Below the pieces are notes generated by a model that saw only the letters and a program-made list of their open reading frames with translations, ran no database searches and was not told where the DNA came from. Both the position numbers and the translations under genes were made by a program. From an uncultured Candidatus Saccharibacteria bacterium (GTDB lineage Bacteria > Patescibacteriota > UBA1384 > XYA2-FULL-43-10 > 1-14-0-10-43-13): DNA of 64,000 nucleotides. Shown piece by piece: positions 788 to 19,953 of this stretch. Numbering within the stretch: position 1 is the first letter of the stretch; each line of letters opens with the position of its first letter. The stretch is taken from assembly GCA_964543385.1 (NCBI GenBank), contig CAZIYE010000002.1, positions 34-64,033 on the forward strand, given 5' to 3'.

Positions 788-864
788 GCGTCCATAGCTC
801 AGCTGGATAGAGCGCCTGTCTTCGGAACAGGAGGTCGGGGGTTCGAATCCCTCTGGGCGTACCA
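788..864 (+). tRNA. tRNA-Arg (anticodon TCG)
   Basis: Acceptor GCGTCCA/TGGGCGT (G1.U72 wobble), anticodon stem CCTGT/ACAGG with loop CTTCGGA, T-arm GGGGG-TTCGAAT-CCCTC, encoded CCA. Its last 20 nt are duplicated at 974-993. Confidence 0.9.
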
Positions 865-869
865 GTAAG

Positions 870-2507
870 TTATACGATAAGAATTAAAGTTATTTGAGGC
901 AAATCTAGTCGATTTGTAGAGGGATGAGAACCACCGACAGATTTGAGAAGTGGGTTGGGGGACCCGCAGGTGAGAATCCCTCTGGGCGTACCAAGAAGGA
1001 CAGGCTTCCTTTGAAAAGCCAATAATGCAGTCCAGAAGGGACTAATCTCGGTGTTTAAGTAGTCATTTCCGTCCCATGGCAACCCATTAGGGTATATTGA
1101 ACACATGAGCGTGCGCTTCTGTTTTAGGTCAGATTTTAGGTAAGTTTCGGTGATATTTACAAGCTTTGTTTTGACAAAAATAGTGATGGCTTCCAAATTA
1201 TACTTTTGGATTAGGTCATCATTTTTTGTTACATTAAGAGCCTGAATCTTTTCTTCGACCTTTCTATTTTGCTCCTTAAAAATATCGTCAGAGTAAACTC
1301 CTTGGATATTTTTCTCAATCAGAATCTGGCGAAAGTCATAGAGCTTCTTTAACTCCGTATCAGCAATCTCGCGTCTTTTTTGCAGCGTTGTTAGCCGTTC
1401 GCGATATTTTTGTCGGAGCCAAGCATTAAAATAGTCTGCCGTCTCTGCTTTTGGTTTTATGCCACCCAACAGCTCCTCAGTTTTATCATCTATCTTCACT
1501 CGATTTGTATTCGTCCCTTTGCAGCGATGCGGGCAGAAATAGTAGGGATAGCGTTGGTTTTTGCCCTTGCACCAGCCGGCAGTTAAAGATGCACCGCAAA
1601 TACTACACTTAACAATTCGGCGGAGCGGGAAGTCTGGATTATCAACGTTTCTTCGGGCTAGTGGCTTAGAAATATTCACATTTCTTCCATCTAAGACCGC
1701 TTGCACCTTGTAAAATTGCTCCTCGGTTACCATCGCCGGATGCTGACCTTGAACTTCAAGGTTGTATTTTTTTGAAAAGACTTTTCCCATATAAAACTTG
1801 TTTTTAAATATTTTACTCAAAGTTTGCGCCCTGATCATGCCCTCCTTGCCGTCTCTTTTGCCGCCTTTAATTCCGGCATCTCTTAAGATTTGCGCAACCT
1901 CTTTCAATGTCTTGTGCTCGGTTGCTATCAAGTCCCATGCTTTTCTGACCAGATCGAAAGTTTCCGGATCTTTGACAGCGTAACCGCTTTGATTAAGATA
2001 GCCAAGCGGAACAAAGCCGTTGCTAAGTCCTGACATAAATCGAGCTTTCATACCATTTTTTGATCTCTCGCTTCTAACATCATTATCCATCTGCGCAAAA
2101 CCAGCGAGCATTGTTTCGATAAACTTTTCCGTTGGGCTGCTGCCAGTAGGCTCTGTCGCAGAAACCAGCTTAATATCACATTCAGCCAACTTCTTTCGGA
2201 TAGCCAAATAGTCGGCTGTTTGGCGTGAGATTCGATCTAGTCGATAGACAATAACTGCTTCCACCTCTTTCTTGTGCTGCCGGCAATATTCGAGCATTTC
2301 AAGCAGAGCAGGTCTGCCAGCAATTGTCTTTGCAGATTTGCCTTCATCTCGAAAGATTTCGCCAACTTCTAGCTTTCGTTTCTCGGCTTCTTTTTTACAA
2401 ATATTTTCCTGAGTTTCGAGAGAATAATTATCAACCTGTTCTTCGGTTGAAACCCGCAGATAGATTACCGCTTTCGAAGCTTGCGCCGGAAAAATGTTAT
2501 TCATCAC
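870..2507 (-). CDS. large serine recombinase (resolvase/invertase N-terminal catalytic domain + recombinase domain + zinc ribbon)
   Basis: N-terminal VIYLRVSTEEQ...YRLDRISR serine-recombinase catalytic motif; central recombinase domain; CSICG...CPHRC zinc ribbon followed by a coiled-coil-like region; SD GGAGGGG upstream. The C-terminal ~60 aa are low-complexity and read across the tRNA-3'-end repeat. Confidence 0.85.
   Translation of the reverse strand: MMNNIFPAQASKAVIYLRVSTEEQVDNYSLETQENICKKEAEKRKLEVGEIFRDEGKSAKTIAGRPALLEMLEYCRQHKKEVEAVIVYRLDRISRQTADYLAIRKKLAECDIKLVSATEPTGSSPTEKFIETMLAGFAQMDNDVRSERSKNGMKARFMSGLSNGFVPLGYLNQSGYAVKDPETFDLVRKAWDLIATEHKTLKEVAQILRDAGIKGGKRDGKEGMIRAQTLSKIFKNKFYMGKVFSKKYNLEVQGQHPAMVTEEQFYKVQAVLDGRNVNISKPLARRNVDNPDFPLRRIVKCSICGASLTAGWCKGKNQRYPYYFCPHRCKGTNTNRVKIDDKTEELLGGIKPKAETADYFNAWLRQKYRERLTTLQKRREIADTELKKLYDFRQILIEKNIQGVYSDDIFKEQNRKVEEKIQALNVTKNDDLIQKYNLEAITIFVKTKLVNITETYLKSDLKQKRTLMCSIYPNGLPWDGNDYLNTEISPFWTALLAFQRKPVLLGTPRGILTCGSPNPLLKSVGGSHPSTNRLDLPQITLILIV
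974..993 (+). repeat. 20-bp direct repeat of the tRNA-Arg(TCG) 3' end (GAATCCCTCTGGGCGTACCA); att-like duplication
   Basis: Exact match to 845-864, 129 bp downstream. Preceded by GGGGG like the tRNA T-stem but with a divergent T-loop. Lies inside the 3' end of the recombinase ORF (minus strand). Confidence 0.8.
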
Positions 2508-2833
2508 CCCTCCCTTAATACCTCTCTTAATGTTTTGTTATTGAAAATTTGTCTCTCAAATTCATCCATCCAACAGTCGAGCAGAAACTCAAATTCCGTT
2601 AAATGCGCTTGGAGTTCTGAGTCGGAAAGGCTGGTTGCAACATCACCGAGTATCTTTCTCGCCCTGGCTAATTTATTTTCTGCTTTATCAAAATCAAAGA
2701 TATTTTCGAGGGCTGATTCAATCGAGTTGTCTTTGTGTTCTGAAAAATTGACTGCTGGCTCTTTGACTACTGGATAATTAGTCACAAATTGAGTTCTTGC
2801 AATTGGATTTAGAAGTTGTAGTTGACCGGACAT
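2504..2833 (-). CDS. hypothetical protein (109 aa) adjacent to the recombinase; possible accessory/regulatory factor
   Basis: ORF with SD AGGAGG (complement of 2841-2846) and a 40-bp palindrome immediately upstream; no family recognised. Confidence 0.55.
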   Translation of the reverse strand: MSGQLQLLNPIARTQFVTNYPVVKEPAVNFSEHKDNSIESALENIFDFDKAENKLARARKILGDVATSLSDSELQAHLTEFEFLLDCWMDEFERQIFNNKTLREVLREG

Positions 2834-2848
2834 TGAACACCCTCCTAT

Positions 2849-2888
2849 CTATGACTATATCCATAGTTTACTATGGATATAGTCATAG
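2849..2888. promoter_or_regulatory. near-perfect 40-bp palindrome (CTATGACTATATCCATAG-tta-CTATGGATATAGTCATAG) directly upstream of the 109-aa gene
   Basis: 18-bp arms are exact reverse complements. Sits between the SD of the 2504-2833 gene and the end of the 2974-3771 gene. Candidate operator or recombination site. Confidence 0.6.
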
Positions 2889-2973
2889 TGTCAAGAGAAA
2901 TGGTCGATAGTTTATCAATAAAATAGCCAGTCCTAGAGTACAAATATAGGTGTTCAAATATACGCCAATTTAA

Positions 2974-3771
2974 CTACGCTTTTTCCCAAACATCACCGCC
3001 AGATTCATTCGATTTGAGGCTCTCTAGTAAGGCGAACTGAATCGTAAAATCAGCATCTGGGTACTCATCGGCTCTGAGTCTTCGAGTATACCTTTTGGCA
3101 TAAATTAGTAGGTACATCGAATGACAAACAAAAAGTAGAGTCGGGAATTCATCCTCTATGTTATCCTCCCAGCCATTGGAATAGTACAGATCAAAATATC
3201 TTTTAATTTTATTACGGACTAAGGCGAAAGAAGAATATCTCTCAATTACTTCTAATAGGTAATACATTGTCACACTTTTGTTACTTGCTCGCTTTGCAAA
3301 AAGAAGTTCGGGCTTAATCTTGGCCTCCGTCAGGAAACAATAATCCGAATATGGCTCAGCCAATTCTGTTTTGGTTATAACTGAAGAATTCTCCGCTTCC
3401 ATATTTTTATTTAAAAAAGCCAGGCTAAGATCAGCAAGCAAAAGGGCATCGGTAATATGACCAGATGATCCAGACCCTGCTTCTGTTGTTATCTTAGGGA
3501 AGTACTTAGGGGTGATGAGATATTTTTTCGACAAATACGGAAGACTGTTAGGAGCTAGGTAATAGATAGATGGCCTTGTTCTTTCGACATAGCCGTTTGA
3601 CCAGATTCTTTTTAGATATTCATTTTCTGTTAGGTCTTTAAGCCAGCTGTTTATTCTTCTATGATCTTTATGTTTTAGGAATGATTGTATCTGTATTCTG
3701 TTTAGGAATTTGAATTTATATATTAGAGTTAGGATTTCTTGTTGTTTAGTTGTTATTGTTTGATTTGTCAT
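2974..3771 (-). CDS. replication-relaxation family-like winged-HTH protein (plasmid/ICE-type)
   Basis: N-terminus TTKQQEILTLIYKFKFLNRIQIQSFL matches the Replic_Relax pattern (LTxxQxxIL..IY.FRFL...QI..L); size 265 aa. Confidence 0.5.
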   Translation of the reverse strand: MTNQTITTKQQEILTLIYKFKFLNRIQIQSFLKHKDHRRINSWLKDLTENEYLKRIWSNGYVERTRPSIYYLAPNSLPYLSKKYLITPKYFPKITTEAGSGSSGHITDALLLADLSLAFLNKNMEAENSSVITKTELAEPYSDYCFLTEAKIKPELLFAKRASNKSVTMYYLLEVIERYSSFALVRNKIKRYFDLYYSNGWEDNIEDEFPTLLFVCHSMYLLIYAKRYTRRLRADEYPDADFTIQFALLESLKSNESGGDVWEKA

Positions 3772-3821
3772 GTTTTTTTGATTGATTATTTTTAGGACGA
3801 GTATTATTTATTTTTTCCCTA

Positions 3822-3854
3822 ACCTACCTAACCATATATGTGTATAGGGTAGGT
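3822..3854. repeat. hairpin (ACCTACC ... GGTAGGT) with 19-nt AT-rich loop, flanked by CCTAACC repeats
   Basis: 7-bp perfect stem seen in sequence; sits in the non-coding stretch upstream of the Replic_Relax-like gene. Confidence 0.4.
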
Positions 3855-3903
3855 GCTAAATATTTTCAAATTTAGCTTCAAAAACCCATATTTTTTGCCA
3901 CAG

Positions 3904-3929
3904 ATGACTGGGACAATTGACTGGGACAA
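3904..3929. repeat. two tandem 13-bp direct repeats (aTGACTGGGACAA / tTGACTGGGACAA); iteron- or operator-like
   Basis: Adjacent copies identical in 12 of 13 nt, ~135 bp upstream of the Replic_Relax-like gene start. Confidence 0.5.
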
Positions 3930-4232
3930 AACACTGGCCATCTAATACATTGTATAACACAAAATATGAAGGCCTCCAAGCCCAGAATGAGTTATTATGA
4001 TATCTCTCTGAAACAGACTGAAAAATGCAGTTTTATTAAGCTGAAAAATTTCTCAGCTAATTCTTAGTTCTTACTATAGTATTGGTGTAGTTTTTAAAAG
4101 AGACTTTGTTATTTTGAAGAACTAGGGCAAAAATTAACTACATATCCAATTTTTGATATTATCTGTAAATACTGCTTAAGGGATTGTCTAGATAGTGTGG
4201 AATTTATGGATTTATTAGAGACCGATATTGTT

Positions 4233-5180
4233 TTAGGTACGGACATTTTGCACTTTTAGCCTGAGGACTTGATTCGGTGTTTTGCCGTTCAGTCCGCAGT
4301 GTTTTAAATCATTGTAATACATATTCCAAAGCTTTGCTTGGTATTTTAATTCCTCCTCTGTTTTGTATCTAATCTTCTCATAAAAACTCTCCTGATCAGA
4401 TCGATGACTTCTCTCAACGCAACCGTTTTGAGCTGGTTTGCCTGGGTCAATCAAGTAATGAGCGATATCTAATCTCTCGCACTCAATATCTAGCGGATGA
4501 AGGTTTGGGTTAAATGGATCTTTGCTCTTAAGATAGCCGGTGTATCTGTTTGTGAAGATGCTGCCATTGTCAGTCTTAATTGCTTTAATCCGGTACGGAA
4601 ACCTTTGAATTACCTCGTTTAGGAAGTTCAGAGCATCAACATTGGCTTGCTGGTCATAGATCTTTAGGTAGCGCCATCTGGAGGCGCAGTCTATGGCAGT
4701 GAACTGGTAATACCTCTTCTCGTTGATCTTATCTGGCACGTATTTGACATCGATCTCAATTAGTTCACCGGGCAGGAGTAGTGTCTTTGGCTTCTGTGGA
4801 TACTGCTTCCTTGTGCGGTATTTCCGAGTCAGGCCGTCTGTCTTTAGGATCTTGCCAATAGTTCTCTCGTGGAGAAAGATGCCTTCGTCCGCCAGATCCC
4901 ACTTGATCTTTAGAGCACACTCGTCGTTCATCTCGTGGCGCAGCTCCAGCACCCGTTCTTTGATTCTGATTGGCGTTTCGTTGGGCTGAGACCTTGGTCT
5001 GGTTGAGTGGTTTTCAAGGCCGGCCAATCCATCCTCTCGGTATTGTTTTAACCAATACTTAATGGCTCTTTCTGAGAAAGGACAGACCAAGGCAAGGTCT
5101 TTAATCTTCATCCTTTTTTCCAAGACAGGAGTAATCCATCTTAGTTTTTCTTCTTGTGTCGAATTGGGCATTATCTTCAT
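4233..5180 (-). CDS. IS481-family DDE transposase (HTH + integrase-core/rve domain)
   Basis: N-terminal HTH and HSTRPRSQP motif typical of IS481; DDE core with IKTDNGSIF ... NGCVERSHRS. Confidence 0.85.
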   Translation of the reverse strand: MKIMPNSTQEEKLRWITPVLEKRMKIKDLALVCPFSERAIKYWLKQYREDGLAGLENHSTRPRSQPNETPIRIKERVLELRHEMNDECALKIKWDLADEGIFLHERTIGKILKTDGLTRKYRTRKQYPQKPKTLLLPGELIEIDVKYVPDKINEKRYYQFTAIDCASRWRYLKIYDQQANVDALNFLNEVIQRFPYRIKAIKTDNGSIFTNRYTGYLKSKDPFNPNLHPLDIECERLDIAHYLIDPGKPAQNGCVERSHRSDQESFYEKIRYKTEEELKYQAKLWNMYYNDLKHCGLNGKTPNQVLRLKVQNVRT

Positions 5181-5220
5181 GCTCCAAGTTAACCAAAAAG
5201 TGCAAAAAGTGTGTACACAT
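4235..5220 (-). mobile_element. IS481-family insertion sequence (~980 bp) with imperfect ~21-bp terminal inverted repeats
   Basis: IRL GTACGGACATTTTGCACTTTT (4238-4257) against the reverse complement of IRR AAAAGTGCAAAAAGTGTGTAC (5196-5216). A single transposase ORF fills the element. No clear target-site duplication. Confidence 0.8.
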
Positions 5221-5232
5221 TACCATATTTAC

Positions 5233-5262
5233 TTGAAGAAATAGCGGCCACTATTGTATAAT
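5233..5262 (+). promoter_or_regulatory. putative sigma-70 promoter (TTGAAG - 18 nt - TGtTATAAT, extended -10) for the large surface-protein gene
   Basis: Hexamers read directly; located 16 nt outside the IS right end and 34 nt upstream of the ATG. Confidence 0.4.
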
Positions 5263-5295
5263 ATAAACAGTTGAAAAATTATCTTTGTGAGGGCC

Positions 5296-8200
5296 ATGAT
5301 TAAAAAAAGCAGTTACCTTAAAATTTGCTTCGTCATATTTCTAATTTTGGGAATTTCTTTTCCACCTGTTTCAAGAATTGCTAAAGCGAGTAATCCAACT
5401 TACTATGTTAGTGTTATCAATGGACAACTGAAATACCGTCTTGATAATTGGCCTGACGGAAGTAACGGCACTATTCCAAATCCGAGTGATTTAAACCAGT
5501 TATTCTTTGACCTGAACAATGACAAGAGTATAGTTCTTGATGCTGGCACATATTCTGGAACGTTGCTAGATGCCACAGACGGTATTGATATTGGGCGATC
5601 CGGACAACACATTCGCTCTGCTGTCAGTACTGATCCTGATTATGCAAATCGATTAGGCGAGGTAATCATCGATGGGGCAGGCATGAATGATGATGTTTTT
5701 GTTCTAAATGCCTCCAATAATATCTCCGGCATCACTATTCGGGGAGCTGATGGGGGAAAGAGAAACTTGGTTATCTCTAGTGGGACAGCAATTATCAATG
5801 ACATGATTTTGTCGGGCGGTGATTCCGGTTTTCTTTTTTCCGGTTCTAGTAATGTGACATTAAATCGTGTAAAAGTGAGTAACGTTAGCAGTTATATCGG
5901 CGATGTCAACGGAGCTTCGGCAAACACTACTTTTAATTATGGCCAATTTACCGACAATGCCAGTCCGATCAGAGTTTTTAATGGCAATTTGACAGTTAAT
6001 AATTCAACCCTTGCCGGCACAAAGAACGAAGCGATTTATATAGCTAATAACAATGGCCAGCAAGTCATGGTAAATAACAGCATTATTACAGCATCCAGTA
6101 CTGATAACGCCAATAAAAATGCAATTTTAAATAGCTCCTCAAATGCGAGTTGCACGGTAAACAATACTCTCATCCACTCAAATCCGATGAATGGGAATTA
6201 CTTAACTAGCGGCTGCACCTTAAACAATGCGACGACTGATGAAGCTGCTGGTTTCATTTCGCCAAAGAGGCAGGGAATGGTTTCGATTGTGATTGACGAC
6301 GCTGCTAGCAAAGACTGGTTCGGCACGATGGCCGACCTAGCTGAAGAGAGAAATTTCCGGCTTACTTGGGCCGTCGACACAAGATACATGTCAATTCATG
6401 AATACTGGGGTAGTGCTATCGATTTTGCAAACCGCGGCCATGAAATTGCTTCCCACTCCAGCTCTCATTCTTATCTGACAGAGTTAAGAGGTATTAATAT
6501 TCAGTACATTGGGACCGGTGCTGCGGCGACCTTGTCGATCGATGCTGCAACAAAAACCCTAACAACCTCTGTGGCTGACAAGCCATCCGATAACCTTTCT
6601 ATCAACTTAAACAATTACACACTTCATGGTCTAGCCAATTTTATTGCTAGTTCTAAGGGTGGTTCGGCCTACGTGGGCACAATTGCGTCAAGTAACAACA
6701 ATGAAGTTCCTGCCAGCATTTTAAGCACAGTTTCAAATCAAAGCATCAAAGAATCCATTTATATTGCCAATTTAAATGCTGATGCATACTACAGTTATGA
6801 AATACAAGGGTCAAAAACAGCAATCGAAACACAGATCGGCAATGGGTATGTGGTAAAATCTTTACACTATCCTTTCTGGCAAAGCAACTCTAACGTCAGA
6901 GACGCAGTCTCATCTGCCGGATATATTGGCGCAAGAGGCTTTGATGGTACTCGCTTGATTTCCGATATTGCCGCCTTTGAAACATACGGAATTCAAGTCG
7001 GAAACCTTTTTGGAGCTTTAAACACTAATCCAAACGAGACCCAAATAAAAGGAAGAGTTCATGCCTTGGCGCAATATCTTAATCATGTCGGTGGATTTAT
7101 CACGCTTGTTGCGCACAATAGCTTAATGGAGGGCGACTATACTCAACAGGAGTGGATCTGGGTGATGGACGCGCTAAAGGAAAGCGGTATTCAAGTTTTA
7201 CCATACGGCGAAGCAATAGAAGGGATAATTCAAGATGCAGAGTCTACCAGTGGAAGTGACGGGAGTCTTCATTATCTTAGAAGTCAATTGCACCTAGGAG
7301 ATCAATCGGATTATAGTCTGAGTCCTTTGTCGGTTGGAATAGATGCTGGTTCTAATCTTAGCCTAACAGCAGACTTTCTCGGGAATCCAGTTTATGGCTC
7401 CCCGGACCTTGGCGCTTTTGAATTTCAACCTAATTATCTCATTGGCGATGATCAAATTGACATAACTGCCGGCGCTAAAATCTATGCTGATGGCAAGTTT
7501 CGCAATCTTGGAACTAGCTCTGGAAATATCGCTGACTTAGTTGTCAAACCAGAGGGTGGCAATTTCAGTACTTATGGACAAAATGAAACTAGACCCGTCT
7601 GGCTTGAAATTGAGAATATTGTTTGGTCAAATACCGGCACCCGACATAAGCAATGGGTGGAAAACTCTGATTTCCCTGGTCTTACAAATACTTTGCATGT
7701 TGTTGGTGATTTGTTACCGAGTAAATTATATAATGTTAAAGTAGATAGCGTGCTCGGGCAGAATATTACGGGTGATGCATGTACTTCTGGTGTTTGCCGA
7801 TCTGACTCAAATGGGCAAATAACCTTCACCTATACAGGCACTTATTCTGCACACACCTTTGATATCGAAGAGGGTGATAATTTTGGACCTCAAATTGTGA
7901 GTGTCACCGCTGAAAACCAGGATGGTTATTATTATGCTGGCGACACTCTCAATATTCTAGTCGAGTTCTCTGAGAACGTAGCTGTTGCTGGGATTCCTCG
8001 ACTGCAGATGCGTACTAATAATGGAGATAAATATGCAAATTATTATTCTGGTAGCAACTCTTCTGTATTAGTATTCAATTATTTAGTCGAGATTGGCGAC
8101 CGGACTGATGATCTAGACTATTCTAATGTTGATTCTTTGGATCTTAATTCTGGAACAATCCGAGATTCTGTTGGTAATGATGCGGTTTTGTTATTGCCGC

Positions 8201-8925
8201 TTCCTGGTCAGCAATACTCGTTGGGCTTTAACAAGACTATTATTATTGATCAGGAGCAGCCTGTCGTTACAGATGTGACTTCTATCTCATCAAATGGCAC
8301 ATATAAGGTGGGTCAAGCCATTATTATTCGACTTATTGCTTCTGAGACGGTTATAGTGTCCGGAAAACCGAAATTGCAGCTTGATACTAATAACGGTGAC
8401 CGCTTTGCTATCTATAGCCAAGGTTCGGGTTCTCCAAATATTGACTTTTCTTTTGAAGTCGACGTTAACGATTCAACAGAAAGATTAAACTATGTTGATA
8501 TAAATTCCCTGGGTATGAATGGCGGCTCGATTGTTGATTTAGCAGGAAATCCTCTAGTTGCAATTTTGCCATCGCCATCCGGCCCCAATTCCCTTGCTCA
8601 TTATGCAAAAATTTTTATAGCGAAAACCACTAATGATTTTAACTCTCAAGGTACTCAAGATGATGGCCAGAGCATTTCCTCAATTAATTCTGAAAAAATA
8701 GTCACTCCCAAAACAATCGATGACAATTTAGAGGTAGCGGAAAATGAAAATACTGAACTAGCTCAAAAAGATACAGATAGAAGTAATGGTCAAAAAGAGT
8801 CAGCAATAAACGAGGTTAATGCTAAAAAAACACCTTTTAATACCATCGCACTTATTATCATATTGGGTATTGCTATTTCAGCTATTAGCTTTAGCGCTTT
8901 ATCTAAGTTAAAACCCAGAAAATAA
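5296..8925 (+). CDS. large secreted/cell-surface protein (~1,210 aa): signal peptide, right-handed beta-helix repeats, NodB/CE4 polysaccharide-deacetylase domain, two tandem ~110-aa Ig-like repeats, C-terminal TM anchor with basic tail
   Basis: N-terminal MIKKSSYLKICFVIFLILGISF signal. N/S/T-rich beta-helix-like repeats (NNSTLAGT, NNSIITAS). CE4 motifs VIDDA ... HEIASHSSSH. Two paralogous repeats (PQIVSVTAENQDGYYYAGDTLNI... / PVVTDVTSISSNGTYKVGQAIII...). C-terminal IALIIILGIAISAISFSALSKLKPRK. The ORF track start (GTG 5287) was moved to the ATG at 5296. Confidence 0.8.
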   Translation: MIKKSSYLKICFVIFLILGISFPPVSRIAKASNPTYYVSVINGQLKYRLDNWPDGSNGTIPNPSDLNQLFFDLNNDKSIVLDAGTYSGTLLDATDGIDIGRSGQHIRSAVSTDPDYANRLGEVIIDGAGMNDDVFVLNASNNISGITIRGADGGKRNLVISSGTAIINDMILSGGDSGFLFSGSSNVTLNRVKVSNVSSYIGDVNGASANTTFNYGQFTDNASPIRVFNGNLTVNNSTLAGTKNEAIYIANNNGQQVMVNNSIITASSTDNANKNAILNSSSNASCTVNNTLIHSNPMNGNYLTSGCTLNNATTDEAAGFISPKRQGMVSIVIDDAASKDWFGTMADLAEERNFRLTWAVDTRYMSIHEYWGSAIDFANRGHEIASHSSSHSYLTELRGINIQYIGTGAAATLSIDAATKTLTTSVADKPSDNLSINLNNYTLHGLANFIASSKGGSAYVGTIASSNNNEVPASILSTVSNQSIKESIYIANLNADAYYSYEIQGSKTAIETQIGNGYVVKSLHYPFWQSNSNVRDAVSSAGYIGARGFDGTRLISDIAAFETYGIQVGNLFGALNTNPNETQIKGRVHALAQYLNHVGGFITLVAHNSLMEGDYTQQEWIWVMDALKESGIQVLPYGEAIEGIIQDAESTSGSDGSLHYLRSQLHLGDQSDYSLSPLSVGIDAGSNLSLTADFLGNPVYGSPDLGAFEFQPNYLIGDDQIDITAGAKIYADGKFRNLGTSSGNIADLVVKPEGGNFSTYGQNETRPVWLEIENIVWSNTGTRHKQWVENSDFPGLTNTLHVVGDLLPSKLYNVKVDSVLGQNITGDACTSGVCRSDSNGQITFTYTGTYSAHTFDIEEGDNFGPQIVSVTAENQDGYYYAGDTLNILVEFSENVAVAGIPRLQMRTNNGDKYANYYSGSNSSVLVFNYLVEIGDRTDDLDYSNVDSLDLNSGTIRDSVGNDAVLLLPLPGQQYSLGFNKTIIIDQEQPVVTDVTSISSNGTYKVGQAIIIRLIASETVIVSGKPKLQLDTNNGDRFAIYSQGSGSPNIDFSFEVDVNDSTERLNYVDINSLGMNGGSIVDLAGNPLVAILPSPSGPNSLAHYAKIFIAKTTNDFNSQGTQDDGQSISSINSEKIVTPKTIDDNLEVAENENTELAQKDTDRSNGQKESAINEVNAKKTPFNTIALIIILGIAISAISFSALSKLKPRK

Positions 8926-9034
8926 ATAGCTAATCTATGCAAGAGTTTTTGAGATGATGTCCAGCAAGTGGTATTTCCTTGCGAGTGAAATCTGAACCTT
9001 GTTTTTTGGGCCTAATTTTGTTATGATATGGAGC

Positions 9035-9247
9035 ATGATGAGTAAAAATGAAAGCTCGATAAGCTTAGGTGATCAGATAAGAACTGCTAGAGAAAAGGCA
9101 GGACTGACACAAGCGGATGTTGCGAAGGCGGCTAGTATTGACGTCAGTTATTATGCTGAGATTGAGCGAAATGCTGTAAACCCTTCATATCGTAAGATTC
9201 AAGCGATTGCAAAAGTCCTCAAGATCAAGTCGATCAGTGTTTCATAA
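9035..9247 (+). CDS. XRE-family helix-turn-helix transcriptional regulator (ORF track start 8999; ATG at 9035/9038 more likely)
   Basis: LGDQIRTAREKAGLTQADVAKAASIDVSYYAEIERNAVNPSYRKIQAIAKVLKI matches the Cro/C1 HTH_3 pattern; a disrupted paralog lies at 19599-19817. Confidence 0.75.
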   Translation: MMSKNESSISLGDQIRTAREKAGLTQADVAKAASIDVSYYAEIERNAVNPSYRKIQAIAKVLKIKSISVS

Positions 9248-9285
9248 TCTACTCATTGTTTACATCGTTAAAAGCACTCATCAAC

Positions 9286-9336
9286 TGGTTTAGCCAGCTT
9301 AAAAGGTGTTCAAAACAAAGTCCCTCAAGGGTACCA
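9286..9336 (+). repeat. conserved 'arm' (TGGTTTAGCCA-n7-AGGTGTTCAAAACAAA) followed by a degenerate tRNA-Arg-like 3' end (CCCTCAAGGGTACCA); putative distal att site of the integrated element
   Basis: The same arm with the same spacing recurs at 19857-19890 after the XRE pseudogene. 9322-9336 matches the tRNA-Arg(TCG) 3' end CCCTCTGGGCGTACCA at 12 of 16 positions, in direct orientation. Confidence 0.5.
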
Positions 9337-9457
9337 TGAAGAAGATTTATACATTTTATTATTTGGTTATTAAATTATTTATTGTTTAAATTTAATAAAA
9401 ATTATTCGTTAAATAGTCAAATGAAAAAATAACTAAATGAACAAATATGTGATTTTT

Positions 9458-9533
<76 letters not shown>

Positions 9534-9645
9534 TGAAATAAGACAGACCCATCAACGGGTCTTTTTTAAATCAGAGTGAGGGAACACCTTAAAACCGCAA
9601 TAAATAACAATCCCTCAACATGGAGATTGTTATTTATATGAACTA

Positions 9646-9978
9646 TTAATTATTTCTATCCTGGTCATCTTTTCTGCGGCGTATTTCCTCATGATAACTA
9701 GTACTTGGTCTTTCTTCTCTTGATACACCTATAATAGCCCTTACAATGGCTATAAAGACAACGGCACCGATCACTCCCCAAAGAATACCTAAAACTGAAA
9801 AGGCGCCAGAACTCAGCGCAGTTCCTATTCCTAATACGCTGCCGAAGAACCATCTTCCAATAAGTGATCCGATAATTCCCACGATCATATCAGTTACGAT
9901 TCCTTGTCTAGTTTTCATTATTGCACTTGCAATCCAACCTATTAGAATACCAGTGATGATTGCTAGAATCCAACTCAT
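9646..9978 (-). CDS. GlsB/YeaQ/YmgE-family (transglycosylase-associated) small membrane protein
   Basis: MSWILAIITGILIGWIASAIM...GIIGSLIG...G pattern of Gly-rich TM helices, ~110 aa, charged C-terminal tail. Confidence 0.75.
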   Translation of the reverse strand: MSWILAIITGILIGWIASAIMKTRQGIVTDMIVGIIGSLIGRWFFGSVLGIGTALSSGAFSVLGILWGVIGAVVFIAIVRAIIGVSREERPSTSYHEEIRRRKDDQDRNN

Positions 9979-10676: not shown

Positions 10677-10751
10677 GGCCTCATCGTCTATCGGTTAGGA
10701 CACCACGCTTTCAATGTGGTAAGAGGGGTTCGACTCCCCTTGAGGCTACCA
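10677..10751 (+). tRNA. tRNA-Glu (anticodon TTC)
   Basis: Acceptor GGCCTCA/TGAGGCT (G1.U72), anticodon stem CCACG/TGTGG with loop CTTTCAA, T-arm AGGGG-TTCGACT-CCCCT, CCA encoded; begins 3 nt after tRNA-Lys. Confidence 0.85.
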
Positions 10752-10951
10752 AATGAATCGAACAACTTTATATTAATGATTTATCTCTCTGGAATTCATA
10801 TTCTGGTGTTCGATAAACATTGCGAGTTATATGAAAAAGCATTGCTGCGAGGCGATGCTTTTTCATTTACAAAACTAAGTACTTGACAACATAGTATTTG
10901 GGTATATATTCATAAAGTAGACATAAAAAATTTTGAAAGGAGGTGAGAAAA

Positions 10952-11191
10952 ATGCCAAATTTAGATCAAACAGGTCCGCAAGGACAGGGTCCCATGACCG
11001 GACGAGGAATGGGTCCATGTGGAGGCGGAGCGCGTCGAGGGATGGGTTGTGGTAGAGGTTACGGACGTTTCGCAGGCCGTTCATATCTATCAAAATCCGA
11101 GGAATTGGATGAGCTGGAAGATGAAGCCAAGGCAATGGAAGCTGACCTAAAAGCTCTCAAGGAAAGAATCTCTGAGATCAGGGGAGAATAG
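10952..11191 (+). CDS. DUF5320-like glycine-rich small protein (GPMTGRG...C motif, C-terminal coiled coil)
   Basis: MPNLDQTGPQGQGPMTGRGMGPCGGG... matches the DUF5320 N-terminal motif as remembered; strong SD AAAGGAGGTGAG 7 nt upstream of the ATG at 10952 (ORF track shows an earlier GTG). Confidence 0.6.
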   Translation: MPNLDQTGPQGQGPMTGRGMGPCGGGARRGMGCGRGYGRFAGRSYLSKSEELDELEDEAKAMEADLKALKERISEIRGE

Positions 11192-11196
11192 AAAAA

Positions 11197-11239
11197 GCCG
11201 TCCCGATGCTCCGGAAATTTATCCGGAGATCGGGGCGAC
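11197..11239 (+). terminator. compound GC-rich hairpin after the DUF5320 gene (no clear U-tract)
   Basis: Inner stem CTCCGG/CCGGAG and outer stem GTCCCGAT/ATCGGGGC read from sequence. Confidence 0.35.
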
Positions 11240-11299
11240 CCGCAATTAGATTATTATCAAAAAATCATCTTTAATCAATATTAAAGCGAGGGAAAAGTA

Positions 11300-12031
11300 A
11301 TGAGATTAGAAAATAAGGTTGCTATTGTAACAGGCGCTTCATCTGGCATAGGAAGAGCAATCGCCGAAAAATTTACAAAAGAAGGTGCCAGGGTTATTTA
11401 TTCCGACATAAACGCACCGGAAGGTTTCGAAAAAACGGACAGTGTCCTGTTTGTTAAATGCGATGTTTCTAAATCAGAAGAAGTAGAAACTTTAATCGAC
11501 AAAGCAATTGATCATTTTGGCAGGATTGACATTATGGTAAACAACGCCGGAATCGGCGGATTAGGCGGTGTGCTTGATGTAACTGATGAAAATTGGGATA
11601 AAACAATCGGAATAAATCTTTCTGGCGTAATGTATGGTATGCGGGCAGCGGCTAATAAAATGAAGGAAGCTGGCATTAAAGGCGTAATTATAAATATGAG
11701 TTCAATTTTGGGTAGTGTCGGTTTTAATGGAGCTATCGCATACTGCGCGGCAAAAGGGGGTATTGTTCAACTCACTCACGCAGGATCTCTCGACCTCGCT
11801 CAGTACCAAATTAGGGTAAACGCTATTGCCCCAGGTTTCATTGAAACAAATATGACAAAAGATATACTTAAAAATGAACAATTTAATCAATTAGTAACTG
11901 GTTCAACTCCATTGGGCTATGTTGGCGAGCCGGATGATATTGCCAATGCCGCTGTTTACTTGGCATCAGATGAGGCCAAATATGTCACCGGTAATATTCT
12001 TTATGTTGATGGCGGCTGGACGGCTAAATAG
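11300..12031 (+). CDS. short-chain dehydrogenase/reductase (FabG-like, NAD(P)-dependent)
   Basis: TGASSGIG Rossmann motif, NNAG, catalytic YCAAK; 243 aa. Confidence 0.85.
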   Translation: MRLENKVAIVTGASSGIGRAIAEKFTKEGARVIYSDINAPEGFEKTDSVLFVKCDVSKSEEVETLIDKAIDHFGRIDIMVNNAGIGGLGGVLDVTDENWDKTIGINLSGVMYGMRAAANKMKEAGIKGVIINMSSILGSVGFNGAIAYCAAKGGIVQLTHAGSLDLAQYQIRVNAIAPGFIETNMTKDILKNEQFNQLVTGSTPLGYVGEPDDIANAAVYLASDEAKYVTGNILYVDGGWTAK

Positions 12032-12041
12032 AAAGGAAGCA

Positions 12042-12524
12042 ATGAGACCAAGAAAATTTAGGCATGTTTGTATGAATCCTGAAATAAGATTCTTTAAACC
12101 TCAGGGTGTTCCGATGAGCCAGTTGGAAGTTATTGATCTAACTGACGAAGAGCTTGAAGCATTAAGGCTAAAGAATATAGAGGATCTAGATCAAATAGTT
12201 GCCGCAGAAAAAATGGGCACATCGCAAAGTACTTTCCAAAGGATTCTAACTTCGGCTTACAAAAAAATTTCCGACGCGTTGGTAAACGGCAAAGCGATTA
12301 AAATCAAAGAGATTGAAAGACCGATGAGAAAGTTTGAATGTTGGAAGTGCAAACACACATGGGAGGAGCCTTTTGGCAATGGCAGGCGCGGAATTGATAT
12401 GAGCTGCCCGGAGTGCAAAGGCGAAGAGATTCATCGTTGTGATAACAACGGTCATGGTTTTGGCAATCAATTTTGGGGGCACAAAGGTGGAACGGATAAA
12501 ATAGATAAAAGCTCTGGCAATTAA
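12042..12524 (+). CDS. DUF134 (UPF0251) predicted DNA-binding protein with C-terminal C4 zinc ribbon
   Basis: FKPQGVP...LTDEELEALRLKNIEDLDQIVAAEKMGTSQSTFQRILTSAYKKISDALVNGKAIKI is the DUF134 signature; C-terminal CWKC...CPEC. Start reassigned to ATG 12042 (SD AGGAAG) after the SDR stop. Confidence 0.65.
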   Translation: MRPRKFRHVCMNPEIRFFKPQGVPMSQLEVIDLTDEELEALRLKNIEDLDQIVAAEKMGTSQSTFQRILTSAYKKISDALVNGKAIKIKEIERPMRKFECWKCKHTWEEPFGNGRRGIDMSCPECKGEEIHRCDNNGHGFGNQFWGHKGGTDKIDKSSGN

Positions 12525-12598
12525 ATATTTTCGATATTAAAGATCAATAAATCAATGACCTATACGAAGAAGAGTGAATAATTAACTAAATAATTTTC

Positions 12599-12817
12599 AT
12601 GCAAAAATCAAAAATATCAGGGATTCTAATGATTTCCTCAGCTATAATTCTCGCAGCCTTAGTAATCGGCTATACTGTTCTATTTTCAATTTTTGGGATC
12701 AAATCCGGTGGTTCGTTTTTAATGGTTATTCCCTTACTTGTAATCGCAGTTGGCGTAATAATGGCTCTATTTTTTCTTTTGCGCGCTGGAATTAAGCAGA
12801 TAAAAAATAATAAATAA
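12599..12817 (+). CDS. small two-TM membrane protein (hypothetical)
   Basis: 72-aa ORF, two hydrophobic helices. Confidence 0.5.
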   Translation: MQKSKISGILMISSAIILAALVIGYTVLFSIFGIKSGGSFLMVIPLLVIAVGVIMALFFLLRAGIKQIKNNK

Positions 12818-12852
12818 TTTAGCGTTGTTTTATAATGCTGACGGAGGAGTAA

Positions 12853-13122
12853 ATGAAAGTACTAAAATTTGGTGCCATATGGTGTCCTGGTTGTTTGATT
12901 ATGAAGCCGATGTGGCAAGAAATTGAGAAAGAAAACAGTTGGCTTAAGAATGAATACTATGACTATGATGAAAACAGAGAGATGGCTGATAAATGGCAAG
13001 TCAATGATACTCTGCCTACTTTTATCTTTGTCGATAAAGACGAGAACGAGATTCTACGCCTACAGGGCGAGCGCTCAAAGACAGAACTGTTAAAACTTAT
13101 TGAAGAGTATAAGGACAAGTAA
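12853..13122 (+). CDS. thioredoxin-like protein (WCPGC active site)
   Basis: KFGAIWCPGCLIMKP motif, 89 aa, SD GGAGGAG upstream. Confidence 0.75.
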   Translation: MKVLKFGAIWCPGCLIMKPMWQEIEKENSWLKNEYYDYDENREMADKWQVNDTLPTFIFVDKDENEILRLQGERSKTELLKLIEEYKDK

Positions 13123-14291
13123 TGAAGAAGATTGCAGCTATACTTTTTGCGGCATTTTTTGCTGCAACACTATTTTTACCTTTAAGGTCTTTTGCGGCCG
13201 AAGAAAAGATAATTTTCTTTTGGGCAGAGGGCTGTCCTCACTGCGCAGCTGAAAGCGTATTTTTGGAAAAGCTGGTATCGGAGAATTCTGGGCTTTCAGT
13301 AGAAAAGCATGAGGTATCCAAAAGCAAAGAAAATCAACAGCTTCTAGTCGATTGGAGTAAAAAGTTAAATTTTGATGCCAACGGTGTCCCTGTGACGATT
13401 ATCGGAGAAAAATATGTATTGGGATACATGGATGGTATTACCGATTCGAAGATTGAAAGTTTCCTTGTTTCCCCTGCAGACCTTAAGGGTAGTGGCGAAG
13501 TTTGCGCAATTGATCGACCATGTGATGACAAAGAGGTAAACAATCACAAGATAAAACTGCCTTTTTTTGGCGAGATTGAAACCAAAAACTTCTCACTGCC
13601 GATTCTCTCAATTGTTATCGGCATACTTGATGGCTTCAATCCTTGCGCTATGTGGACTCTGCTATTTTTGATCAGCTTGCTTCTCGGTATGAAGGATAGA
13701 AAAAGAATGTGGATACTGGGGTCTGCTTTTATTGTTGCCTCTGCCGCAGTTTACTTTGTCTTTATGTCGGCGTGGCTGAATCTGTTGCTTTTTATCGGAT
13801 TAATTGCGACAGTCCGCATAATCATCGGCTTGGTCTCGCTTGGCGGTGGAATGTACAGTCTCAAGGATTTTGCGACCAATAAAGAGGGCGGCTGCAAAGT
13901 TACGGATAATGAAAAAAGGAAGGCAACTTTTGAGAAAATAAAGCATATTGTTCACGAAAGAAGCTTCATCTTGGCTCTTTTTGGAATCATTATATTGGCC
14001 TTTGCTGTTAATCTTGTGGAGCTTATTTGCTCAGCTGGCCTTCCGGCTGTATATACTCAAATCCTGACGATGAGCAACTTGCATGTTTGGCAGTATTACC
14101 TCTATATCTTGCTTTATGTTTTCTTTTTTATGCTCGACGATCTTATTATCTTTTTCATCGCGATGTTTACATTGCAACTCACGGGTATAACTACTCGCTA
14201 CTCTCGAATTTCTAGACTAGTTGGTGGTATACTGATGTTAGTAATCGGTTTAATTTTAATATTTAAGCCTTCATGGCTAATGTTTGGATAA
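13122..14291 (+). CDS. thioredoxin-fold domain fused to a CcdA/DsbD-like transmembrane thiol-disulfide transfer domain
   Basis: Signal peptide, WAEGCPHCAAE CxxC motif, then multi-TM region with conserved Cys in GFNPCAMW and ELICSAGLP as in DsbD/CcdA. Confidence 0.55.
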   Translation: MKKIAAILFAAFFAATLFLPLRSFAAEEKIIFFWAEGCPHCAAESVFLEKLVSENSGLSVEKHEVSKSKENQQLLVDWSKKLNFDANGVPVTIIGEKYVLGYMDGITDSKIESFLVSPADLKGSGEVCAIDRPCDDKEVNNHKIKLPFFGEIETKNFSLPILSIVIGILDGFNPCAMWTLLFLISLLLGMKDRKRMWILGSAFIVASAAVYFVFMSAWLNLLLFIGLIATVRIIIGLVSLGGGMYSLKDFATNKEGGCKVTDNEKRKATFEKIKHIVHERSFILALFGIIILAFAVNLVELICSAGLPAVYTQILTMSNLHVWQYYLYILLYVFFFMLDDLIIFFIAMFTLQLTGITTRYSRISRLVGGILMLVIGLILIFKPSWLMFG

Positions 14292-15511
14292 GTATGCTTA
14301 ACGAAATTATTAAAAATTACACTAAAAAAATTGTTTTCTCTGCACTTTTTTTATTTTTGGCTCTCATACCGTTTGCAGCTAAAGCCGCAGAACAAGTTTC
14401 GGTTGATGAGGACTCAATCAATTTTCAAGAAGTGGGAAAAGTAAGTCTTGAAGAAAATTCTGAAAATATAGGCAACACTTCTGAATCGGAGCAAAAAATT
14501 GAGGCCTTGGTTCTGGAAGTTCTAAACCAAAAAGAAGTTGAAGATGAACTTGGTAAAAAAATCGTCTTACAAAATATTAAATTGAGAGGTTTGAATAACG
14601 GATACAAAGGTAAGGAGATAGAATTCTTGGGGATCGAAAATAATATTTCGACGAAACAAACTTATGAAAAAGGCGATAGGTTATTCGTTTGGATAAAAGA
14701 TGATACTAATGGCAGAACGGTAATAATCGAAGATGCCGTTCGAACCAATTCAATTATTTGGCTCTTGCTGATATTTGTCGCAGTAGTACTCATTATTGCT
14801 AGAGGTCATGGCTTAAGATCGCTCATTTCCTTATTTTTAACTTTTGTCATCATAATTAAGTGGGTTGTCCCAGCGATATCTAGTGGATCAAATCCATTAT
14901 TCATAACTCTCCTCGCTGCTTTTGCGATTCTTTTATCCTCAATTTTGTTAGTCTATGGGTGGAATAAAAAATCAGGCATTGCTATTGCTGGTACTTTTGC
15001 AGGTGTTTTAATAACTCTTGTTTTATCAGTAATCTTTAGCAACTTAACTGAGCTGACTGGTTTTGCAGCCGAAGAAAGCATGTATCTGATCGATATCTTT
15101 AAAAACGAAATTAGCCTAAAAGGATTGTTATTATCAGGTTTTGTTCTTGGCTCTCTCGGGATACTGGACGATATTGCTGTGACACAGGTCTCCGCTGTCG
15201 AAGAAATTAGAAGAGCCAACCCAAATATTTCACAATCGAATCTTTACAAAAGCGCCATGAGGGTCGGAATTGATCATATTTCTTCGATGATCAACACTCT
15301 GTTTTTAGCTTACGCTGGTGCCTCCTTTTTCTTGTTATTTTTATTTAATATTAAACAGCCGCCTTTTGAAAACTTTTCTGCTGTGATTAACAACGAAATA
15401 ATTTCCACTGAAATAGTAAGGACTTTGGTTGGCAGTATCGGTTTGATTTTATGCGTTCCAATTACTACATATATCGCAAGTACATTTTTCCATAAAAATG
15501 CTAGTAAATAG
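14273..15511 (+). CDS. polytopic membrane protein with N-terminal extracytoplasmic domain (possibly YibE/F-like)
   Basis: Signal/TM at N-terminus, soluble ~130-aa region, then 6-7 TM helices; family assignment tentative. Confidence 0.5.
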   Translation: MANVWISMLNEIIKNYTKKIVFSALFLFLALIPFAAKAAEQVSVDEDSINFQEVGKVSLEENSENIGNTSESEQKIEALVLEVLNQKEVEDELGKKIVLQNIKLRGLNNGYKGKEIEFLGIENNISTKQTYEKGDRLFVWIKDDTNGRTVIIEDAVRTNSIIWLLLIFVAVVLIIARGHGLRSLISLFLTFVIIIKWVVPAISSGSNPLFITLLAAFAILLSSILLVYGWNKKSGIAIAGTFAGVLITLVLSVIFSNLTELTGFAAEESMYLIDIFKNEISLKGLLLSGFVLGSLGILDDIAVTQVSAVEEIRRANPNISQSNLYKSAMRVGIDHISSMINTLFLAYAGASFFLLFLFNIKQPPFENFSAVINNEIISTEIVRTLVGSIGLILCVPITTYIASTFFHKNASK

Positions 15512-15545
15512 TCAGCATCACAATTAGGTTAAAAGAAGGGGCAAG

Positions 15546-16657: not shown

Positions 16658-16663
16658 GAAATT

Positions 16664-17895: not shown

Positions 17896-18024
17896 ATAAA
17901 TTATTCGGTCGTCAAAATATTCATTTTTGGCAGCTAAAGTCTTTATCTATTACTTTTTTAAATTTTGTTTGTCTTAGTTGGTTGTGGTAAAATCAACATA
18001 GAAACATTATTAACGGAGGGAAAA

Positions 18025-18657: not shown

Positions 18658-18713
18658 TGCGCAGGCAAAAAGCAAAGAGATAGAAAGATTAACAACTTAG
18701 AAACTGGAGGAGG

Positions 18714-19487: not shown

Positions 19488-19598
19488 ATAAAAATTAGTG
19501 AAATAGATCATTTTCGGACTAAACACTATTTCATCAACTGGTGATGAAATAGTGAAAAAGGATAGTCAGCATTGTATTCAATAATAAATTTGATATAT

Positions 19599-19817
19599 AT
19601 GAATAGCGAAAATGCCGATAAAATTTTAAAAGATCTGGGTAGTAGAATAAAAAAAGCCCGATAAGAGATCGGTCTAACCAAAGCGGAAGTCGCAAAAGCG
19701 GTTGGCATGCATGTCAATTATTATACACAGATCGAGCGAGGCGAGGTAAACCCTTCTTGCGAGAAACTTCAAGCCATCGTAAAAGTGATCAAGCTGAAAA
19801 CGCTTGATATGTCTTAG
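19599..19817 (+). pseudogene. XRE-family HTH regulator paralog interrupted by an in-frame TAA (19672-19674)
   Basis: Translates MNSENADKILKDLGSRIKKAR*EIGLTKAEVAKAVGMHVNYYTQIERGEVNPSCEKLQAIVKVIKLKTLDMS. Collinear with the intact copy at 9035-9247; stop falls where the intact copy has EKAGLTQ. Confidence 0.6.
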
Positions 19818-19856
19818 TTATTTTCATCCGCTCCGTCCTCAAAAGATCTCATAAAA

Positions 19857-19907
19857 TGGTTCAGCCAATCCATGAGGTGTTCGAAACAAATTGCATCGAG
19901 GCTACCA
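19857..19907 (+). repeat. second copy of the conserved arm (TGGTTCAGCCA-n7-AGGTGTTCGAAACAAA) followed by a tRNA-Glu-like 3' end (TCGAGGCTACCA)
   Basis: Same spacing as 9286-9336. 19896-19907 matches the 3' end of tRNA-Glu (TTGAGGCTACCA, 10740-10751) at 11 of 12 positions; lies in the ogt downstream region. Confidence 0.45.
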
Positions 19908-19953
19908 AAATAAAAACTTCATCTTCGGATGGAGTTTTTATTTTGCTTATAGT

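Follow-up and report, generated by a model that had tools for sequence, protein, structure and literature searches.

An integrative element of Candidatus Saccharibacteria that severs the end of its own large serine recombinase gene at tRNA genes

The 64,000 nucleotides of an uncultured Candidatus Saccharibacteria bacterium analysed here (the window; contig CAZIYE010000002.1 of assembly GCA_964543385.1) carry bacterial tmRNA and tRNA genes and, in two places, the same short module: a gene for an XRE-family helix-turn-helix (HTH) regulator, a conserved 34-bp arm and a sequence resembling the 3' end of a tRNA. The first of these, copy A, closes an 8.3-kb insertion at 994-9336 (element A), whose opposite end is occupied by the gene of a large serine recombinase (LSR) abutting the 3' end of tRNA-Arg(tcg); the second, copy B, is a decayed counterpart further along the window. 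A first-pass annotation made from the letters alone had noticed this twofold module and proposed that it was left by integration at tRNA genes. Each locus is indeed the attR end of an integrative element that entered the 3' end of a tRNA gene, and the module holds at both; what changes is the nature of the arm, which had been taken for a conserved element arm and, implicitly, for a noncoding site of the tyrosine-integrase kind. It is the last ~28-35 codons of the element's own LSR gene, severed by integration. We therefore hold with high confidence that the two loci are attR junctions of a family of LSR-moved elements of the Patescibacteria, or candidate phyla radiation (CPR), some of them plasmid-like or resembling integrative and conjugative elements (ICE), in which the 3' end of the recombinase gene contains attP.

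Within the window the arm, TGGTTYAGCCA-n7-AGGTGTTCRAAACAAA, occurs at 9286-9319 and 19857-19890 only, even when up to three mismatches are allowed, against a chance expectation of 0 (100 shuffles), and an nhmmer profile of the whole module of ~95 nt finds the same two sites and no others (E=2e-22 and 7e-21). Compared base by base, the two loci differ chiefly at every third position. The regulator of copy A matches repressor and regulator families in PHROG and measures 70 aa from its ATG, shorter than the ~80 aa first assigned to it. The tRNA-like ends are as sharply defined. GAGGCTACCAAA is present exactly twice, at the 3' end of tRNA-Glu (10742-10753) and at 19898-19909 (0.01 expected), so that the resemblance of copy B to tRNA-Glu becomes an exact 12-nt core common to both, and the 20-nt end of tRNA-Arg(tcg) has exact copies at 845-864 and 974-993 (0 expected). 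The resemblance of 9322-9336 to tRNA-Arg was also well founded, this being a real tRNA-Arg-type end on the + strand, but the element sits in tRNA-Arg(tcg), 8.3 kb to the left, rather than in tRNA-Arg(tct) beside it. We had considered the latter, at 9458, as the partner of copy A, given that GGGTACCATGAA at 9328-9339 agrees at 12 of 12 positions with its 3' end plus four flanking bases (9526-9537), and rejected it on geometry; the agreement arises because the P arm is built for ends of the tRNA-Arg(tct) type, as used by a sister element (L165).

By its domains, the enzyme at the left end appears to be a bona fide LSR. It matches Resolvase (PF00239, 1e-33), Recombinase (PF07508, 3e-13) and, for the zinc ribbon, Zn_ribbon_recom (8e-5; PF13408, 23.3 bits, just below its cut-off of 25.3) in Pfam, and an integrase family in PHROG (8e-84); it contains the motif YLRVSTEEQ, matches 3GUV and the TP901-1 integrase catalytic domain in the Protein Data Bank (PDB), and aligns over residues 234-459 with the C-terminal domain of A118 integrase (4KIS). 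Its open reading frame (ORF) is nevertheless only in part a recombinase gene: nt 2507 to ~994 (residues 1 to ~506) encode the enzyme, whilst the last ~40 residues are read from the antisense strand of the 20-nt tRNA copy and from the filler beyond it. Homology to full-length relatives stops at the tRNA-end copy (974-993), and the codons that follow (GTPRGIL...) are the antisense of that copy.

The missing end of the gene is found 8.3 kb away, in the arm. Read on the minus strand, copy A ends in ...HGTLEGLCFEHLLSWLNQLMSAFNDVNNE and copy B in ...FGSLDAICFEHLMDWLNHFMRSFEDGADENN, each followed by a stop codon, with the C-terminal consensus ...G-x-L-D-A-L-x-FEHLLxWLxQL...; substitutions between arms fall at third codon positions, and even after divergence of the DNA the protein sequence stays conserved. 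We identify the arm as the end of the recombinase gene because in two relatives, L084 and L164, the tail closes a single, unbroken LSR ORF. The contig of L084 closes into a circle of 6,640 bp, its ends overlapping over 136 of 137 nt, and encodes a 550-aa LSR that is 60% identical to that of the window (over residues 6-501) and ends ...NLVSFGGLDALPFEHLLAWLDQLRQAFEE... (in full ...NLVSFGGLDALPFEHLLAWLDQLRQAFEESDSPDCPKRYLKT and stop), with the XRE gene convergent upon it; L164, an unintegrated contig, has the same arrangement with a 531-aa tailed LSR (P0070). Like the integrated forms, these circular ones have a complete XRE ORF, which stops at the same position in both. When the L084 protein is searched against the window by tblastn, residues 3-506 align to 2492-1005 and residues 514-540 to 9335-9255 (E=2e-4), with residues 513-537 aligning in addition to 19909-19835 in copy B (E=2e-4); the break at residue ~501-506 falls where the antisense tRNA begins. 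Joining 2507..994 to 9336..9249 across the circle junction restores an open ORF of 533 aa that ends in ...AFQRKPVLLGTLEGLCFEHLLSWLNQLMSAFNDVNNE and stop. The detached tail of copy A holds both the 34-bp motif and, at 9306-9314, the T-loop-like GTGTTCAAA.

The tail is widespread, and it behaves as a fragment. It follows XRE homologues in genomes of Berkelbacteria, Collierbacteria and other Patescibacteria, and its conserved block always starts at G-[TSGA]-[LP]-[DE]. Upstream of G-x-L-D the loci are unrelated, and a start codon is absent from both window copies and from most relatives; among database proteins, a peptide-profile search picked out 48 called ORFs, 30-72 aa long, whose N-termini vary. 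Such variable upstream sequence, usually lacking a start, is what one expects of a gene fragment whose first codons lie at a recombination junction. Scanning metagenomes with the tail peptide gave 80 loci, and of the 68 tails with enough flank 44 are followed by an XRE homologue convergent on them; the viral contigs searched with the tail profile contained no match. Two other readings of the arm were tried and dropped. A small ORF on the + strand (NWFSQLKRCSKQ...) was favoured at first, since the substitutions looked synonymous, but third positions are common to the + and minus frames, only the minus frame is protein-like in distant relatives, and it is this frame that is continuous with the LSR in L084. 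A tRNA-like or otherwise structured RNA was likewise set aside: neither ARAGORN nor Rfam finds a match in the arms, and the T-arm-like box has no complementary stem.

Table 1. Features of element A, of the fossil element B and of their tRNA borders (positions in the window)
Feature	Position	Strand	Basis
tRNA-Arg(tcg), complete, left border	788..864	+	ARAGORN; Rfam tRNA 67 bits
Filler, 109 bp, separating tRNA from its 3'-end copy	865..973		Absent from L162; no Rfam family; crossed by the integrated recombinase ORF
Exact 20-nt copy of the tRNA-Arg(tcg) 3' end, B arm of attL; core GTACCA 988-993	974..993	+	
LSR ORF, integrated state, 545 aa	870..2507	-	Pfam, PHROG, PDB
orf109, overlaps recombinase start by 4 nt	2504..2833	-	Kept next to LSR in relatives
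Replication-relaxation family protein, element backbone	2974..3771	-	Pfam Replic_Relax 8e-8
Insertion sequence (IS)-type transposase (rve) inside element A	4233..5180	-	Pfam rve 5e-13, HTH_28/32
1212-aa cargo surface protein, beta-helix/polysaccharide deacetylase, C-terminal membrane anchor	5287..8925	+	Pfam
XRE-family HTH regulator, intact, last gene of element A, convergent on recombinase tail	9035..9247	+	Pfam HTH_3 4e-14; HTH_31 3.5e-12
Detached recombinase 3' end GTLEGLCFEHLLSWLNQLMSAFNDVNNE, P arm of attR	9249..9336	-	Stop 9249-9251; L084 tblastn
attR core GTACCA, right boundary of element A	9331..9336	+	L162, L163 identity ends at 9336
tRNA-Arg(tct), next in original tRNA cluster (B' side), not integration partner	9458..9533	+	ARAGORN
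tRNA-Glu(ttc) 10677-10751 + 2 nt, attL of fossil element B; core GAGGCTACCAAA 10742-10753	10677..10753	+	
Recombinase 3' stump (...NIKLFDSFGS; cf. L084 ...NSNLVSFGG)	10752..10828	-	Weak: read from sequence, nhmmer no score
XRE pseudogene, element B, TAA at codon 22	19599..19817	+	50% aa identity to copy A XRE
Detached recombinase tail of element B (FGSLDAICFEHLMDWLNHFMRSFEDGADENN) + attR core 19898-19909	19814..19909	-	Stop 19814-19816

Element A is not only delimited but mobile (Table 1). From 974 to 9336 it is 100.000% identical over 8,363 bp to a second locus, L162, whilst identity in the flanking tRNA cluster drops to 85-93% and the L162 contig breaks off precisely at the core; an identical copy in a different host background makes these elements, on sequence identity, clearly mobile, and copy A is probably a recent and still competent one. 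In L162 the same element abuts the tRNA directly. In a third locus, L163, identity likewise ends at 9336, and 9 nt separate that point from tRNA-Arg(tct), as against 121 in the window. The original site was, from gene order, a cluster of tRNAs for Pro, Gly, His, Arg(tcg), Arg(tct), Lys and Glu, and hence a tRNA lies directly to the right of copy A; a tRNA directly to the right of the tail recurs at many loci. We recovered no empty tRNA-Arg(tcg) site in a close relative. An earlier placement of attL at 864, after the full tRNA, left a TAA in frame three codons short of the junction; we abandoned it on finding the 20-nt tRNA copy at 974-993, and the arrangement in L162 confirmed where the junction truly lies. 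The filler may be a remaining stump of a different element whose core was 20 bp long. Separately, 15 of 82 tail copies have their junction within 200 nt of a contig end (L085, L087, L092, L093, L103, L110, L126, L151, L162 and others), breaks that are consistent with population heterogeneity or repeats.

Comparison of attL with attR in the relatives defines short shared cores. Written in the sense of the LSR, these are TTTGGCGGA in L099, TTTGGCGG in L102, GGCGGAGA in L116, TTTGGTAG in L113, TGGTAC in window A, TTTGGTAGCCTC in window B and TTGGTACCC in L164/L165; the first six span 6-12 nt and have GG(T/C) in common. Counting outward from the core, TTCGAAC or TTTGAAC stands at positions 20-26 of the P arm and the T-loop TTCGAAC at positions 15-21 of the tRNA (B) arm in every pair examined. 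In A118 integrase, the motif bound by the zinc-ribbon domain lies 5 bp closer to the centre in attB than in attP (PMC3783163), and the shift seen here appears, from motif positions, to match this attP/attB geometry of serine integrases. The P' arm of element A carries an inverted TTTGAAAA at the mirror position, and that of L099 is homologous to the left half of the L084 attP. From this symmetry we would place the centre of crossover at the G|T of TGG|TAC, which is the boundary between discriminator and CCA. By eye, the tRNAs at 788, 9458, 10677 and 23543 have G1-U72 as first acceptor pair and an encoded CCA, and in these tRNA-Arg and tRNA-Glu genes the encoded CCA forms part of the recombination core.

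The same organisation recurs across the Patescibacteria, in metagenome-assembled genomes of Berkelbacteria, CPR2, Saccharibacteria and other lineages. Integrated relatives run in the order tail, XRE gene, cargo, orf109, LSR, antisense tRNA; the LSR gene is split in the window, L099, L102, L116 and L165, and whole in L084 and L164, whilst in L023 and L012 the LSR ORF extends into the 3' end of a tRNA gene. The prediction of a family of related elements with different tRNA targets is borne out by relatives in seven tRNA species, Ser(tga), Ser(gga), Glu(ttc), Glu(ctc), Arg(gcg), Arg(ccg) and Arg(tct), with individual hosts identified as Ser(tga) for L099 and L102/L103, Ser(gga) for L116, Glu(ttc) for L113, Arg(ccg) for L161 and Arg(tct) for L165. 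Among the best 120 of 1,354 database LSRs matching at E<=1e-40, whose C-termini we inspected, one has the complete tail, one a partial tail and 118 none; these 118 diverge just after ...FG, many of them into GIRT.., a typical antisense tRNA reading. One cluster at 90% identity contains the same LSR with three different C-termini, and in it the tailed P0070 and P0183, which reads into antisense tRNA-Arg(tct), are at least 90% identical and part right after TTGGTACCC. In a few contigs tails stand in rows near tRNA-Leu genes (at 5217, 7026, 8569 and 11697 in L104, and two each in L105 and L159), and these look like arrays of attR fossils from repeated integration at one hot spot.

Copy B is a fossil, as had been suggested for the copy next to ogt: its regulator gene is nonsense-mutated and it has no recombinase, the window containing no LSR besides 870-2507. 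The core that it shares with tRNA-Glu lies 9.1 kb from the tRNA gene. Comparable remnants occur upstream of the same RNase Y homologue in L113 and L148, and that of L113 packs tRNA-Glu(ttc), an LSR fragment, an XRE gene and a tail into ~0.8 kb. The genes of 10752-19597 in the window encode a short-chain dehydrogenase/reductase (SDR), DUF134, a thioredoxin-like protein, YibE/F, two ZIP-like membrane proteins, a rhodanese-like protein and DUF2202, and we found no homologues of the genes at 10.7-19.5 kb inside other elements. After the recombinase stump beside tRNA-Glu there is also a truncated third arm-like piece, GGTGTTCGATAAACATTGCGAG at 10806-10828; stump and piece together suggest a second, almost erased insertion at this tRNA.

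How might such an element work? In the free circle, the LSR ORF crosses attP and ends in the conserved tail of ~28-35 aa, with the XRE gene convergent upon it. The enzyme would recombine attP with the 3' end of a tRNA gene, the crossover falling near the boundary of discriminator and CCA; the empty attB would have the tRNA-Arg(tcg) 3' end joined directly to TGAAGAAGATTT. Integration leaves the tRNA intact. The body of the LSR gene then lies at attL, reading into antisense tRNA, and its last ~28 codons are found with the XRE gene at the far end, attR, the arm serving at once as coding sequence of the tail and as P half-site, with a TTCGAAC box that mimics the tRNA T-loop. With attP inside the LSR ORF, integration therefore exchanges the C-terminal tail of the enzyme. 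Perhaps the exchange alters the activity of the recombinase and so stabilises the integrated state, with excision left to the tail-less enzyme and a helper, for which orf109 is a candidate, or to a full-length enzyme supplied in trans. We prefer this reading, though only tentatively, and the tail swap as a switch is in our view possible rather than probable. A little more doubtful is the widest form of the idea, that of a large, previously undescribed class of self-splitting serine integrases across the Patescibacteria in which the tail swap itself sets or locks the direction of recombination.

Several points weigh against parts of this picture. The attL of copy A is atypical, with its 20-nt tRNA copy and 109-bp filler, and the core that it shares with attR is only 6 nt long; for the crossover dinucleotide, sequence symmetry in a single element is the only guide. 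Examples of the attP form number only three (L084, L164/P0070 and the partial P0170). The F-E-H of the tail coincides with the DNA motif TTCGAACAC, and part of the apparent protein conservation may in consequence be a constraint on the DNA site. The difference in activity of the tail-less enzyme is hypothetical, and in the AlphaFold model of P0070 the predicted tail helix (511-525) is of low confidence, at a predicted local distance difference test (pLDDT) of ~50-62; the structure alignment was built without the tail fragments, which misaligned when added, and the low values follow from their omission. For copy B, the 9.1 kb between tRNA-Glu and the fossil end may be either cargo or native DNA.

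The strongest alternative concerns the consequence of the split and leaves the identity of the arm untouched. The split may be real but functionally neutral, attP simply overlapping a dispensable gene end, with a separate factor setting direction as in other serine integrases. The integrated ORF does retain the catalytic, recombinase and zinc-ribbon/coiled-coil domains, the elements clearly move, and orf109 is a conserved candidate for the helper. In the model of P0070, moreover, the core is confident, with long helices at 352-399 and 405-425, and the residues encoded by the att core (501-509, pLDDT <50) are predicted to form a disordered linker. What such neutrality does not lead one to expect is that the W, the L-x-Q-L and the acidic end of the tail, which lie beyond the half-site of ~26 bp, should be conserved at the protein level across deeply diverged subfamilies, as would be unusual for a dispensable appendix. 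We regard a neutral split as somewhat short of an even prospect, and a little ahead of a tail that matters.

Alternatives to the arm as the severed end of the LSR gene fare far worse. It could be an independent gene of ~50-65 aa convergent on the XRE gene, a toxin/antitoxin-like or anti-repressor partner with no relation to the recombinase, a view to which the called ORFs of 30-72 aa, some with common short N-terminal extensions, and the strong XRE linkage (44/68) lend some colour. We consider it very improbable: the upstream sequences are unrelated and mostly without a start codon, the motif is the in-frame end of the 550-aa and 531-aa LSRs, and the homology of LSR homologues ends exactly where the fragment starts. 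Equally improbable is a noncoding att arm or arm-type site of a tyrosine-integrase element with the tRNA-like end as its usual direct repeat. Integration at a tRNA 3' end with a duplicated tRNA segment is the classical picture of that class, and both the 12 nt common to copy B and tRNA-Glu and the exact 20-nt tRNA-Arg duplicate would fit it. Yet there is no tyrosine recombinase in or adjoining either element, the enzyme that abuts the tRNA, in the window as in eight relatives, belongs to the serine recombinases, the substitutions in the arm fall at third codon positions with conservation at the protein level, and the shared core of copy A has only 6 nt. That the likeness of the two loci and their tRNA-like ends are chance products of low-GC sequence has nothing beyond an AT-rich background to recommend it and is virtually dismissed by a motif expectation of 0, a module profile at E=1e-21, 12-mer and 20-mer repeats expected 0.01 and 0 times, and about 90 homologous loci known elsewhere.

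The severing of an integrase gene by its own attachment site has precedents in part. Like A118/LI, TP901-1, phiC31 and Bxb1, the window enzyme combines a resolvase catalytic domain, a recombinase domain and a zinc ribbon with a long coiled coil, and uses short att sites with a motif in the phage-side and host-side half-sites that is shifted 5 bp outward in attP (PMC3783163); it differs from these LSRs in having attP within its own ORF, so that the tail is exchanged on integration, in targeting tRNA 3' ends and not protein-coding genes, and in its CPR/Patescibacteria hosts. The 'suicidal' integrases of the SSV type (SSV1, pTN3, pT26-2) do have the site in the integrase ORF, and integration into a tRNA gene fragments the gene and leaves the pieces at opposite ends of the integrated element; these self-splitting enzymes are tyrosine recombinases and have been stated to be exclusive to archaea (PMC8371274, PMC7253208). 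The window LSR acts like them in this one respect without being a member of the family: its fold is that of a serine recombinase, its host is bacterial, and only the last ~28-35 codons are removed, which does not imply 'suicide' because all recognised domains remain at attL. In mycobacteriophage BPs, attP falls within an ORF that adjoins the integrase gene, and insertion at the target, a tRNA gene, gives that ORF's product a different, shorter C-terminus (33 residues in gp33) and altered behaviour, the split gene being the repressor and the integrase a tyrosine recombinase (PMC4557955); here the attP-bearing ORF, tRNA target and changed C-terminus are matched, but it is the recombinase that is split, whilst the XRE regulator is whole in both states. 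Prochlorococcus tycheposons are cargo elements beside tRNA genes with partial tRNA copies, repeated integrations and degenerate remnants, and a minority of them use LSRs (bioRxiv 10.1101/2020.12.28.424599). Our elements resemble them in tRNA-adjacent cargo, partial tRNA copies, repeated integration at one tRNA and remnants; the description of tycheposons mentions no split recombinase gene, and lineage and backbone differ (here orf109, LSR, Replic_Relax and XRE). A literature search, which was not exhaustive, turned up no account of a serine recombinase or a bacterial integrase that splits its own gene, and a prior description is possible.

The mobile elements of CPR genomes are poorly charted. 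Here an odd repeat has led to a fully delimited, recently mobile element and to a rule by which others can be sought in CPR genomes, namely a tRNA, an LSR reading into its antisense strand, cargo, an XRE gene and a detached tail. The architecture is the same self-splitting one as that of the archaeal tyrosine integrases, in a bacterial serine-recombinase family of more than 1,000 members; were the tail swap to act as a switch, the enzyme would have a means built in to replace or complement a separate directionality factor, and the archaeal 'suicidal' integrases would have their first counterpart in bacteria and in the serine family. Serine integrases serve as tools of genome engineering, and the control of their directionality is an active question. 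The family offers a testable pair of proteins, the free and the integrated enzyme, which differ by a defined C-terminal tail, together with natural sets of attP, attB, attL and attR for several tRNAs. Annotators should read 'hypothetical proteins' of 30-72 aa with the tail motif as gene fragments, and the C-termini in which these recombinases vary as antisense tRNA.

Between the two ends of element A lie a conserved backbone and variable cargo. orf109 adjoins the LSR gene in L023, L084, L099, L102, L103, L116, L134, L161 and L162 (tblastn) and falls into no Pfam or PHROG family; from this conserved position it is a candidate accessory or directionality factor. The Replic_Relax gene is conserved in L084, L099, L102, L116, L161 and L162, and its orientation defines two arrangements of the backbone, co-directional with orf109 and the LSR gene in the window, L161 and L162 and divergent in the distant relatives L084, L099, L102 and L116. 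The rve transposase travelled with element A, as it is also present in the identical copy L162; the gene of the 1212-aa protein is in L162 too, and other cargo takes its place in L161. That sister element (8285-9910 of its contig, in tRNA-Arg(ccg)), 95% identical in the XRE-tail region and 80% in the LSR region, has a diversity-generating retroelement (bAvd and reverse transcriptase) in place of the transposase and the 1212-aa protein, and a heliorhodopsin gene in its chromosomal flank. L165 (1-11614; GCA_964628585.1), whose related recombinase sits in tRNA-Arg(tct) of a genome syntenic with 20.7-33 kb of the window, encodes a TrbC/VirB2-like pilin, PrgI, a VirB4-like ATPase and an M23 peptidase, and by these type IV secretion genes it is a conjugative-element-like island in a CPR genome.

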